Origin: Anaerolineae bacterium
GTDB taxonomy: Bacteria; Chloroflexota; Anaerolineae; UBA3071
DNA length: 64,000 bases
NCBI GenBank assembly: GCA_029907105.1
Contig: JARYMM010000002.1
Coordinates: 18,992 to 82,991 of the forward strand
Direction: 5' to 3'
Made by a program: the position numbers and the translations under genes. Below the pieces are notes generated by a model. That model was not told the DNA's origin, ran no database searches, and saw only the letters and a list, made by a program, of their open reading frames with translations. This document shows, in pieces, positions 940 through 12,115 of the stretch. The stretch's first letter is position 1. Each line of letters opens with the position of its first letter.

Positions 940-2709
940 ATGAAACTCGGCTTCTCGGTCAAGGTACTGGGCCGGCCCGGCCTCAAGTCGCATGACACCC
1001 GCCGCTGGCAGAACCATCCCCACCTCAGCGTCAGCCTGGTCTACCTGCGTGACATCTTCGCCTACCTGCGGCAGCAGGGAATCCGCATGTACCGCATGGC
1101 CTCCGAACTGGCCCCTTACCTCACCCACCCCGTCATGGGGCAGTTTCACCATCAGATTGACGAATGCCAGACGGAGCTGGCTGCCGTGGGGGAGATCGCC
1201 CGCGCCGACGGGCTGCGGCTTTCCTTTCATCCCGGTTCGCATGTCGTGCTCAACGCCCCTGACGAGGCCGTAGCTGCCAGGAGCCGGGCGGACCTGGTCG
1301 CCCTGGCACGGCTTCTGGAAGGCATGGGCCTGGGCCCGGAGGCGATGATCGTCGTGCATGTAGGCGGCGTGTATGATGACCGCCAGGCGGCGATGGCGCG
1401 CTTCGTCGAGGCCATCGGCCAACTGCCGGAAGCCACGCGGCGGCGGCTGGCGCTGGAGCATGATGATGCCCACTTCTCGCTGAGCGACTGCTATCGGCTG
1501 CACCAACACACGGGCCTGCCCCTGGTCTACGATCACCAACACCACCTGGTGCACAACCCGGAGCGGTTGCCAGCAGGCGAGGCGCTGCGATTGGCACTGA
1601 GCACCTGGCCGGCGGGCGTGCGCCCCAAGGTGCACTTCAGTTCGCCGCGCACGGAGATGCGCCTGGTGGAACGGGCCAACCCGGACGGCGGTCAGCGGTC
1701 ATTGCTCCAGCCGCCCCTCTGGACGCAACACGCCGACTACATCAACCCCTTCGAGTTCATCGCCTTCCTGCGCCTGGCGGAGGGGCTTCCGGACTTCGAC
1801 GTGTTGCTGGAGTGCAAGGCCAAGGACCTGGCCCTGCTGCGCTTGCGGGCCGACCTGGCCCGCTACGCGCCGGAACTGGCGGTCAGGCTGGAAGGCGTCG
1901 AATCCCTCCGTTTGGCCGAGGCGCGGGAACTGTACGAGGCGGAGATGGAGAGCCTGGAGGGGGTACAGCCGGACGAAGTGCGGGTGCTGGTAGTGGTGGT
2001 GAACAATCGCCGCGATTTCGAGCTGGCCCGCCGAGAGGGCTGGTACCGCATTCCCGTCAAACGGGCGCCGCCCCAGGTGGGCGCCGACATCCTGGCCTTC
2101 TACCAGACGGCGGCCTTTGGGCCGGAGGAGCGCTGGGCGGTGAACACCTATGCCCTCGTAAAGCGCTACCGCATCGTCACTCGCGCCGAGCTACTGCCCG
2201 AGGAAGCCGATCACCCGCGGGCCGGCGACCGCTACTTCAAGGTGGAGATCGGCCCGCTGCAAAAGCTGCCCCGACCGGTGCCCAGCCGGCGGCTGCGGCG
2301 CATCACCTTCATCCCCACCACGCTGGAACGGCTGCTGCATGCCGAAGAGATCAACGACCTCTGGCTGGGCAACCCCCTGCAGGAGCGGCTGTGGGCAGCG
2401 TTGAAAGCGGAGGAGATTGCTGCTGAGCGGGAGGTGGAGGTGCCGGAGGTGCTGGCCACGGAGGCCGCCGATTTCGTCATCCCCTGCGCTGAGGGAGAGG
2501 TGATAGTCCTTTGCGGCGGAAGGGTGTTGGGGGAAGGAATGCACACGCTGCGAGAGGAAGGTATCAGCTATGGCACCGCAGCGCGGCAGGTGATCTTGCG
2601 CTTCAACACCCGGCAAATAGCCGAAGCCCTGTCGGACTGCGTGACCGCCGTCGCCGAGGCCATCGCTCGCCTGGGCGGTCTGGCGGGCCAAAACCGCTCT
2701 CTTCCCTGA
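940..2709 (+). CDS. uvdE: UV-damage endonuclease UvdE (N-terminal ~300 aa) fused to a ~290-aa C-terminal extension of unknown function
   Basis: MKLGFSVKVLG...HPGSHVVLN...HDDAHF matches the UvdE TIM-barrel. ATG 940 is preceded by GAGAGGAG. A single 589-aa ORF runs through to TGA 2707..2709. Confidence 0.75.
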   Translation: MKLGFSVKVLGRPGLKSHDTRRWQNHPHLSVSLVYLRDIFAYLRQQGIRMYRMASELAPYLTHPVMGQFHHQIDECQTELAAVGEIARADGLRLSFHPGSHVVLNAPDEAVAARSRADLVALARLLEGMGLGPEAMIVVHVGGVYDDRQAAMARFVEAIGQLPEATRRRLALEHDDAHFSLSDCYRLHQHTGLPLVYDHQHHLVHNPERLPAGEALRLALSTWPAGVRPKVHFSSPRTEMRLVERANPDGGQRSLLQPPLWTQHADYINPFEFIAFLRLAEGLPDFDVLLECKAKDLALLRLRADLARYAPELAVRLEGVESLRLAEARELYEAEMESLEGVQPDEVRVLVVVVNNRRDFELARREGWYRIPVKRAPPQVGADILAFYQTAAFGPEERWAVNTYALVKRYRIVTRAELLPEEADHPRAGDRYFKVEIGPLQKLPRPVPSRRLRRITFIPTTLERLLHAEEINDLWLGNPLQERLWAALKAEEIAAEREVEVPEVLATEAADFVIPCAEGEVIVLCGGRVLGEGMHTLREEGISYGTAARQVILRFNTRQIAEALSDCVTAVAEAIARLGGLAGQNRSLP

Positions 2710-10619: not shown

Positions 10620-10696
10620 AGGCAGTCAGGGAAACAAGTAGACAAGGAAACGACGACGTCCAACGCCGAACACCCTGAACGCGCAATGCCGAACTC

Positions 10697-12115
10697 TCAG
10701 ACGACGTGCACCTTCATCAAGTCGGTCGTGCCCGGGACGCTGCCGGCGGACCCCGCCGTCACCACCACTACATCCCCCTCTTTCACAAAGCCATGCTCCT
10801 TGGCGGTCTGCACGGCGTCGGCGATGACCTCATCGGTGCTGTCGCTGCGGTGAGAGAGCAGGGGGTACACGCCCCAGTAGAGCATCAACTGGCGCTGGGT
10901 CACGGGGCTGGGGGTGACGGCCACGATGGGGCAGCAGGGCCGGAAACGGGAGAGGGTGCGCGCCGTGTAGCCGGAGACGGTGGGGGCGATGATGGCGGCG
11001 GCGTTGAGGTCCCGGGCCGTCTCGCAGGTGGCATGGCTTACCGCTTCGGCGATGCCGGCCGCCCGCGGTGGAACGACGCCCCGTGCCGCGCAACTGCCCA
11101 GGGCCTGCTCCGCCTGCTGAGCGATGCGGGCCATCGTCTGCACCGCCCGCAGGGGATATTGGCCCACGGCCGTCTCGCCGGAGAGCATGATGGCGTCGGT
11201 GCCGTCGAGGATGGCGTTGGCCACATCGCTGGCCTCGGCGCGGGTGGGCCGTGGGTTGCGGATCATGCTGTCCAGCATCTGCGTGGCCGTGATCACCGGT
11301 TTGCCGGCGGCGTTGCAGCGGGTGATGATCATCTTCTGCACCATGGGCACCGCTTCGGGCGAGGTCTCGATGCCCAGGTCGCCGCGGGCGACCATGATGC
11401 CGTCGGCGGCGGCGATGATGGCCTCGATGTTCTCCACCGCCTCCGGCTTTTCGATCTTGGCGATCACCGGCGGGCAGTGGCCAGAGCAGGAGAGCTCGCC
11501 GATCAGCGCTTTCAGGTCCAGCACTTCCTCTGCCGTGCGCACGAAGGAGAGGGCCACCCAGTCCACCTGCTGTTCCAGCGCGAAGCGCAGGTCGTCCCGG
11601 TCCTTGTCGGTGATGGCGGGAATACTCAGCGAGGCCCGGGGCAGATTGATGCCCTTGTTTGTCTGGAGCAGGCCGCCGGTGACCACCCGGCAGACCACTT
11701 CCCTGTCCACCGTGCGCAGCGCCTCCAGCTCGATCAGCCCATCGTCAATGAGGATGGGATCGCCCCTGGCTACCGCCTGCGGCAGCCTGGCGTACTGCAC
11801 CGGCACGCGTCCCGGCTGCCCGACGATGGACTCGGTGGTCAGGATGATCTCCTCACCAGCCCTGAGCGGCAGGCCCTCTTCTGGCATCTTCCCCACCCGC
11901 AGCCGGGGGCCTTGCAGGTCGGTGAGGATGGCCACGGGTTTGCCTGTTTCCACCGCCGCGGCGCGGATGCGGCGGATGTTTTCGCCGTGAACCTCCTGTC
12001 CGCCGTGGGAGAAGTTGAGGCGGGCCACATCCATGCCCGCCGCCATGAGTTGGGCCAGCATGGCCGGCTCCCGGCTGGCCGGGCCAATCGTGCAGACGAT
12101 TTTGGTGCGCAGCAT
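10697..12115 (-). CDS. pyk: pyruvate kinase
   Basis: Has MLRTKIVCTIGPAS...ARLNFSHG. ATG 12115 is preceded by AGGAGG. The longer upstream extension in the track is not supported. Confidence 0.9.
   Translation of the reverse strand: MLRTKIVCTIGPASREPAMLAQLMAAGMDVARLNFSHGGQEVHGENIRRIRAAAVETGKPVAILTDLQGPRLRVGKMPEEGLPLRAGEEIILTTESIVGQPGRVPVQYARLPQAVARGDPILIDDGLIELEALRTVDREVVCRVVTGGLLQTNKGINLPRASLSIPAITDKDRDDLRFALEQQVDWVALSFVRTAEEVLDLKALIGELSCSGHCPPVIAKIEKPEAVENIEAIIAAADGIMVARGDLGIETSPEAVPMVQKMIITRCNAAGKPVITATQMLDSMIRNPRPTRAEASDVANAILDGTDAIMLSGETAVGQYPLRAVQTMARIAQQAEQALGSCAARGVVPPRAAGIAEAVSHATCETARDLNAAAIIAPTVSGYTARTLSRFRPCCPIVAVTPSPVTQRQLMLYWGVYPLLSHRSDSTDEVIADAVQTAKEHGFVKEGDVVVVTAGSAGSVPGTTDLMKVHVV

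Follow-up and report, generated by a model that had tools for sequence, protein, structure and literature searches.

The fusion gene and its domains

The window, by which we mean the whole stretch of 64,000 nucleotides analysed here, carries rsmA, a uvdE fusion gene and genes for an alpha/beta-hydrolase, a radical-SAM protein and EF-G, in this order. The complete fusion gene (940..2709, plus strand; 589 codons and a TGA) was delineated from the list of open reading frames, a homologue search and alignment. It is a single unbroken frame on the plus strand, which runs from either a GTG at 898 or an ATG at 940 to the TGA at 2707-2709. The ATG yields a protein of 589 amino acids with the N-terminus MKLGFSVKV, in agreement with the start of the homologues (consensus MRLGF); the homologues give no support to the GTG as a start. 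No second copy of uvdE, of its C-terminal tail or of a PF01663 gene is present in the window, and a scan for promoters and terminators around the fusion gene found nothing.

The encoded protein comprises a UvdE domain (residues 1-320), a linker (321-347) and two tail domains, here called tailN (348-475) and tailC (476-589). The original prediction, which is partly supported overall, had recognised UvdE in the N-terminal ~300 residues and a reading frame continuing beyond it without a stop; both points are confirmed, with ~270 further residues following UvdE. It had also taken the extension to be a single C-terminal domain of 290 residues; the tail is real, but it is made up of a ~27-residue linker and, after it, one domain of ~128 residues and another of ~114. 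Its remark that the tail has no obvious known match holds for Pfam, NCBIfam, PADLOC, PHROGs and the sequences of the PDB. Structure prediction, which it had proposed as a check on the tail, gave a confident AF2 model of the full-length protein (pLDDT 88, pTM 0.86), in which only the linker and one loop of tailC are disordered; the pTM is no more than suggestive of an interface between tailN and UvdE.

The linker (1900..1980, plus strand) is acidic (pI 4.05) and predicted to be flexible (pLDDT 49-54), and linkers among the fusions described below measure 30-43 residues, with 29% Asp or Glu. The linker of the window protein contains a methionine, Met336 (1945-1947), with the sequence GAGG 5 nt upstream, and stand-alone tail proteins begin near this point. 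An internal start at Met336 was rejected as a conserved feature, as Met is found there in just one of 75 fusions.

The UvdE domain and its probing finger

The current view of UVDE is of a single-domain enzyme that suffices by itself, nicks one strand only and finds lesions by its own probing finger. Enzymes of this family cut directly 5' of CPD and 6-4PP lesions. Characterised UvdEs are ~300 residues long, with an N-terminal extension in Schizosaccharomyces pombe Uve1. The steps around UVDE incision are poorly defined in bacteria, and we know of no accessory factor for this enzyme.

The UvdE TIM-barrel domain of the window protein (940..1899, plus strand) was assigned from matches in Pfam, NCBIfam and PHROGs, from alignment with two crystal structures, from invariant columns and from its dN/dS values (given below). 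Residues 36-304 match PF03851 (E=1.5e-45; 156.1 bits, cutoff 24), the TIGR00629 score lies above its threshold (134.4 against 124.45 bits), and the PHROGs match is phrog_8420. Among known structures, the UVDEs of Thermus thermophilus (2J6V, E=7e-34) and Sulfolobus acidocaldarius (3TC3, E=8e-30) were matched. Ten putative metal-binding or catalytic positions are invariant in 75 fusion proteins (H97, H140, E173, D198, H201, K230, H232, H264, D266 and E291), and the metal-site motifs HPG, HVGG, LALE, D..HH and PKVH, as aligned with 2J6V, are all kept. From this invariance and the Thermus structure, we take H264, D266 and E291 to be putative metal ligands. The UvdE part thus retains every invariant catalytic or metal position.

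Residues 1-320 therefore form the same full-length TIM barrel as in the characterised UvdE/UvsE enzymes (2J6V; 3TC3/4GLE). These enzymes are single-domain proteins with a Gln-Tyr finger, whereas the window protein has Ser-His in its place and a further 270-residue C-terminal module of a putative reader and an apparently dead nuclease. In characterised UVDEs the conserved Gln-Tyr probing finger is pushed in between the two strands. Its Tyr, whose mutation abolishes activity, stacks on the flipped opposite purine, and its Gln stabilises the flipped lesion (PMC3553973).

The altered finger of the window protein, Ser100-His101 (1237..1242, plus strand), lies in a motif that reads HPGSH, against HPGQY in Thermus and Sulfolobus; it was assessed by alignment, a table of locus classes, controls and Fisher tests. 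None of the 75 fusion proteins has Gln at the first finger position, where A or S is found instead, and the second residue is His in 50 of them. When a canonical finger was scored as [Q/H][Y/F/W], it was present in none of 17 fused UvdEs and in none of six from operons in which a PF01663 gene lies between uvdE and the tail, both residues being lost in the latter. It was found in 11 of 34 directly adjacent UvdEs and in five of eight encoded nearby, giving 16 of 65 for all tail-linked UvdEs, and in 11 of 12 unlinked controls. The controls comprised ten plasmid-borne UvdEs (from Alpha- and Gammaproteobacteria, Bacillota and haloarchaea) and the two crystal structures; plasmids were used because a scan for control UvdEs on viral contigs found none. 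The second finger residue is aromatic in all 12 controls. Against these 12 controls from other phyla, the Fisher test gives p=1.8e-5 for all linked UvdEs and p=3.5e-7 for the fused ones.

Judged by these alignments, the canonical Gln-Tyr finger has been lost from many tail-linked UvdEs. Since 16 of the 65 still have it, the tail does not require finger loss, and because the control set is small and drawn from other phyla, the change could reflect lineage drift.

Recurrence of the fusion

A search with the whole protein recovered 74 further fusion clusters of 470-627 residues, at 47-89% identity, from NCBI, JGI, ENA and Logan assemblies. The closest fusion, P0121, is 89% identical and lies in the gene order of the window on two independent contigs. 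Comparison with two fused orthologues gave dN/dS values of 0.08-0.14 for UvdE, 0.17-0.20 for tailN and ~0.17-0.30 for tailC, consistent with purifying selection on all three domains; the 27-codon linker gave 0.57 against one sequence (L005) and 0.16 against another (L007). In a tree of tailN, non-fused forms are interspersed among the fused ones, which fall into two or more separate regions, although this simple neighbour-joining tree of 128 residues is not robust. The reading frame of the tail is not open by mere chance: the tail shares 51-63% identity with more than 100 stand-alone proteins, and the fusion recurs at 47-89% identity.

The fusion is therefore real and recurrent. Separate uvdE and tail genes abut or share 4 nt in relatives, so that a single error could fuse them, but an artefact of the kind feared at the outset (a sequencing frameshift, a lost stop or a chimeric assembly joining two adjacent genes) is excluded for practical purposes, as four sources provide independent assemblies with the same fusion, the fusions share a dedicated linker with a motif conserved within the clade of the window, and purifying selection acts on both tail domains and on the linker, with the higher of the two linker estimates noted above.

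Stand-alone tail genes and their coupling to uvdE

A search with the tail alone returned more than 1,200 proteins. The 120 best matches are all stand-alone, 199-293 residues long and 51-63% identical to the window tail. Most come from Anaerolineae and other Chloroflexota, and their annotations read hypothetical, DUF559 or 'very short patch repair endonuclease'. When one genome per species was scanned, tail relatives were found in 357 genomes, almost all of them Chloroflexota, with the closest match in an uncultured Anaerolineales MAG (L007). That relatives might encode the tail as a separate gene had been put forward as a check, and this is the case in most Anaerolineae and Caldilineae, where the start of the tail gene overlaps or abuts the stop of uvdE.

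The arrangement was counted in the 80 best loci of the species-level scan. The two parts are fused in frame at 13 loci; uvdE lies directly upstream as a separate reading frame at 36, on the same strand within 3 kb at ten, and at a distance of 4.8 kb at one. An upstream uvdE on the same strand is thus found at 60 of the 80 loci, within 3 kb at 59 of these; no uvdE lies within reach (8 kb) at the other 20, two of which have no upstream sequence. Among 27 non-fused neighbours, the uvdE stop and the tail start overlap by 4 nt in ten and lie between -11 and +9 nt of each other in 12 more. Such overlap or abutment indicates that uvdE and the stand-alone tail gene are probably translationally coupled. 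In one clade a PF01663 phosphodiesterase gene is placed between uvdE and the tail, and its stop overlaps the tail start; this phosphodiesterase apart, the loci with the tail alone have no alternative common partner.

On the few long contigs sampled, the genes around window-type loci are ordinary ones, including those for URO-D, YceG, citrate synthase, TsaD/RimI, FTHFS and CODH/ACS. Some operons lie directly upstream of nusA-ylxR-infB, in only a few close relatives. A conserved housekeeping gene order around the pair was considered and rejected, as the flanking genes are common to close relatives only. Literature searches on UvdE with DUF559, and on 'EVE domain' with 'UV damage endonuclease', found no paper describing such a partner of UvdE, and the main survey of EVE contexts makes no mention of UvdE, Vsr or DUF559.

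TailN, a PUA-like domain

TailN (1981..2364, plus strand) is a basic PUA-like beta-barrel of the EVE/YTH/ASCH class. Within this domain lies the WYRIP pattern that had been read as nuclease-like. Its pI of 10.2 compares with 4.7 for tailC, and it has a conserved aromatic and basic core (W368, Y369, R370, P372, F387, Y388, R415 and Y432), in which W368, Y369, F387, Y388 and Y432 are candidate pocket residues. T390, H425 and K434 are conserved in stand-alone and fused tailN alike, and E436 hardly varies among stand-alone proteins.

PUA-like domains bind nucleic acid by capturing an extruded base. Many of them (YTH, PUA and some ASCH domains) bind RNA, the EVE domain of THYN1 and the ASCH domain of TRIP4 bind DNA, and some ASCH domains are hydrolases or ribonucleases, ZmASCH being a ribonuclease. 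TailN resembles members of this class (PH1033, AF2351, THYN1, YTHDC1, ZmASCH and TRIP4) in its barrel, its basic character and its conserved aromatic core. Among its closest folds are the RNA readers YTH and ZmASCH; further fold matches of the tail include VcaM4I, McrB-N and PvuRts1I.

The Pfam models of PUA-like domains (EVE PF01878, YTH PF04146 and ASCH PF04266) matched neither the window protein nor any of 100 close homologues or 147 diverse representatives, and a tailN profile searched against the sequences of the PDB gave nothing at E<=10. By these searches tailN is a new sequence family, with no sequence counterpart in Pfam or the PDB. An exhaustive profile search placed 978 clusters at 50% identity in this family, 608 of them at E<1e-10. 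Its usual partner is DUF559/MTES_1575, and rarely RadC with HhH, a methyltransferase, HIT, HEAT or DUF3800; a DNA endonuclease domain accompanies tailN in 27-30 of the 147 representatives, and RadC/HhH does so in one case. Across the fusions, tailN is 55-93% identical as against 27-66% for tailC, which identifies tailN as the constant partner of UvdE. The suggestion that the tail might be a novel accessory domain may hold for tailN; tailC belongs to a known fold.

TailC, a degenerate nuclease domain

TailC (2365..2706, plus strand) has a Vsr/DUF559-like endonuclease fold with a degenerate active site, and shows the alpha-beta-beta-beta-alpha-beta arrangement of restriction-endonuclease-like folds. 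It is related to the DUF559/Vsr-like group (PF04480 and PF18741; 3HRL, Escherichia coli Vsr 1CW0 and I-Bth0305I 3R3P), yet lies below every Pfam threshold: the window tail has no match to DUF559 (PF04480) at E<=1, and 85 of 100 close homologues match only weakly, whereas distant sisters pass the PF04480 threshold with 38-43 bits (cutoff 20.6). 3HRL and the sister subgroup have the catalytic E-x-D, His and D..R elements, and the window tailC is without them. Of the catalytic signature only D511 survives; the canonical Glu and Asp are replaced by L524 and G526, and neither the His nor the D..R motif is present. In the stand-alone family, the first Asp of the signature is the one fixed residue (99%); L, I or F stands in place of the canonical Glu, and at the site of the canonical Asp 73% have E and 12% have G. 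Near-invariant residues of the family are replaced in the window tailC as well, at A187I, E191G, D208S, G214R and W215Q. TailC is whole in 28 of 76 fusions; in 14 only its first half is present and 34 end just after tailN, so that it is truncated or absent in 48.

The residues lost show tailC to be a predicted dead nuclease. The idea that the tail is a second nuclease, already voiced in the original prediction, fits the fold of tailC but probably not its chemistry. In its strongest form, tailC would cut 3' of the lesion and produce a dual incision, as UvrC does. The fold, the retention of D511 and the purifying selection on tailC would all fit such a role, but with the catalytic motif found in none of 80 window-type loci, the additional departures listed above and the frequent loss of tailC, an active second nuclease is improbable. 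TailC may instead keep some non-catalytic role, because purifying selection on it persists.

A sister group with an intact nuclease

Distant members of the tailN family carry the full nuclease signature D-F...[IV]-E-x-D-G-D-x-W-H...D-N-x-R-N-N, and the window-like subgroup is without it. Loci of the two forms were compared, drawing on a metagenome scan with four sequences. Among 80 loci of the window type (L007-L086), [IVL]ExDG is found in none and uvdE lies nearby at 60; among 80 of the intact sister type (L092-L171), the motif is found in 75 and uvdE is nearby at none, 37 of these loci having at least 1.2 kb of upstream sequence. The nuclease motif thus appears to be dead only where UvdE is linked. 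The aromatic and Arg core of tailN is kept in both subgroups.

The intact form comprises at least 2,868 proteins, including some from MAGs of Anaerolineae and Armatimonadetes. On a handful of long contigs its neighbours are GmrSD_N, AAA_23/SMC-like, AbiEi/AbiEii, AAA_14/DUF4143 and STAND-like genes, as well as an Eco57I-type methyltransferase with an SNF2/PLD helicase, and by their gene content these settings are apparently defence islands. A reader followed by a nuclease is the standard architecture of Type IV restriction. The ancestral architecture of the tail family, a PUA-like reader and then a nuclease, resembles that of Type IV enzymes (the EVE-HNH protein VcaM4I, 6YEX; the McrB N-domains 6N0S and 6P0G; PvuRts1I/AbaSI), and the likeness extends to the location of its catalytically intact sisters. 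The window protein also has a reader and a nuclease, the latter being UvdE; it differs from Type IV enzymes in that its reader is of a separate family, its own nuclease domain is apparently dead, a DNA-repair enzyme would do the cutting and its context is non-defence, with no PADLOC match.

A model for the tail, and its rivals

Together these observations point to the tail as an unrecognised helper in DNA-damage recognition. The domain structure and evolutionary history of the protein are well supported; for its mechanism we infer the following. TailN would bind DNA at or beside the lesion, perhaps through a flipped base, and take over or assist the base extrusion and damage probing that the Gln-Tyr finger performs in an ordinary UvdE. 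UvdE would then incise 5' of the lesion, supplying the only cut, and tailC would serve as a non-cutting scaffold or contact surface. In evolutionary terms, a protein of the defence-island type, with a reader and a Vsr-like nuclease, may have been recruited to UvdE, and once UvdE had become the sole nuclease the Vsr domain would have decayed. That tailN is an accessory that binds DNA or a flipped base and assists or replaces probing by UvdE, with tailC as a non-catalytic scaffold, has in our estimate an even chance of being correct. The ~20 of 80 tail genes without uvdE within 8 kb count against it. A bolder version, which we put forward only tentatively, is that a Type IV-like reader of flipped bases became the damage sensor of UvdE in Anaerolineae and Caldilineae, where it replaces the finger and may redirect incision to different or wider classes of lesions, or to modified bases.

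The tail might, alternatively, have nothing to do with lesion recognition: it could bind RNA or another macromolecule and so localise or regulate UvdE, for instance in transcription coupling, or tailN could itself be an enzyme. The RNA readers and the ribonuclease among its closest folds, the operons upstream of nusA-ylxR-infB, and the conserved T390, H425 and K434 with the nearly invariant E436 are in keeping with this. We nevertheless consider it unlikely, as tailN is by default paired with a DNA endonuclease domain, the nusA neighbourhood is limited to few close relatives, and the degeneration of the finger is specific to a DNA-probing element.

The main rival is a role in defence, in which the reader would recognise a modified (for example, phage-type) base and UvdE would replace the Vsr-like domain as effector, making the protein akin to Type IV restriction and not a repair factor. 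The intact sisters in defence islands and the Type IV architecture among the fold matches speak for it, and the core shared by both tailN subgroups means that the class of ligand may be the same. The genes around the loci and the degree to which UvdE is conserved make it less likely, and we rate it slightly more doubtful than the previous alternative. There is no PADLOC match, window-type loci lie among metabolic and housekeeping genes, and the pair is widespread in one phylum rather than sporadic; purifying selection on UvdE is strong, with all its invariant catalytic positions kept, and an enzyme that nicks one strand would make a poor restriction effector. As flanking order is shared by close relatives only, the non-defence argument rests on annotated neighbourhoods.

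Under the bolder version, in which the reader became the damage sensor of UvdE, the UVDE pathway would gain its first dedicated subunit for recognition or assistance, and a defence module would have been exapted for DNA repair. UvdE has a conserved partner in hundreds of Chloroflexota species, to which it has repeatedly been fused, and the constant part of this partner is a new family of putative PUA-like readers, with ~1,000 clusters at 50% identity and no Pfam model. The family links defence-type base readers to DNA repair, illustrates how a nuclease domain may decay after its role has passed to a neighbouring enzyme, and leads to a hypothesis of two-module damage recognition that is testable by mutagenesis. 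Current labels are misleading for both forms, the stand-alone proteins bearing the annotations given above and the fusions that of 'UvsE'.

An intact tailN-DUF559 family and the possible ancestry of the nuclease motif

Proteins in which the PUA-like barrel of the tail (tailN) is joined to a DUF559 domain with its catalytic motif intact number at least 2,868 and make up a large family that is so far uncharacterised (including those at loci L172-L177 and L087-L091). Genes of this intact type are found in defence islands, where they adjoin GmrSD, AbiE and Eco57I-type restriction-modification/SNF2 genes, and their products may constitute a new defence family of the reader-nuclease (Type IV-like) kind.

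The only matches of the genome scan from outside the Chloroflexota were L046 and L054, from an uncultured bacterium and a Zixibacteria metagenome-assembled genome, respectively. In both, the nuclease motif is still near-canonical (VECNGDxWH...DNxRNN) and uvdE is absent from the neighbourhood, and both branch close to the base of the tailN tree, which was rooted at its midpoint; this is consistent with the intact nuclease form being ancestral. Nested within a clade of fused genes in the same tree is an unfused uvdE/tail pair (L084, 5727-7107), in which the spacer between the UvdE and tailN matches has a length not divisible by three. Either the genes split secondarily here, or a frameshift in the sequencing makes them look split.

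Further fusions of tailN are uncommon, and comprise tailN-DUF559-HhH-RadC(JAB) (protein cluster P0289), tailN-DUF559-SAM methyltransferase (P0350), methyltransferase-HIT-tailN (P0348), tailN-DUF3800 (P0274) and tailN-DUF559-HEAT (P0324).

Genes adjoining uvdE and the tail

At loci L002, L004, L019, L029 and L034, uvdE is followed by a PF01663 (type I phosphodiesterase / nucleotide pyrophosphatase) gene and then by the tail gene, the start of which is overlapped by the PF01663 stop (PF01663 genes at 6149-7471 in L002 and 5032-6348 in L004). A PF01663 gene of ~45% identity also lies directly 5′ of the tail at six loci with no uvdE nearby (L026, L033, L035, L053, L071 and L077). The PF01663 protein may belong to the module as its third component, with a role in, for instance, end processing. 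UvdE-phosphoesterase pairing may also occur in other phyla, since uvsE is overlapped by an upstream gene annotated as 'phosphoesterase' or 'DHH family phosphoesterase' on alphaproteobacterial plasmids (L181, 2003-2989; L183, 1919-2986).

At one fused locus (L178), a gene for a restriction-type nuclease (Mrr_cat / NA-iREase1; 10695-11441) is located ~1 kb downstream of the uvdE-tail gene, in surroundings that are otherwise housekeeping.

Divergence and a possible insertion within the fused gene

Synonymous divergence of the window gene from L005, the fused orthologue closest to it, is 0.24-0.26 for UvdE and tailN, but 0.85, as estimated from only 108 codons, for the degenerate nuclease domain tailC (2365-2706), a value equal to that against the more distant L007. 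This jump suggests either that recombination or gene conversion had a breakpoint close to where tailN meets tailC, or that the estimate for so short a segment is noisy.

In the UvdE domain of the window, a β-hairpin is predicted at 1657-1725 (residues 240-262; strands 241-246 and 252-257), and both the Pfam and the Thermus alignments end at this hairpin (residues 239-241). The predicted element may have been inserted into the barrel in this lineage specifically.
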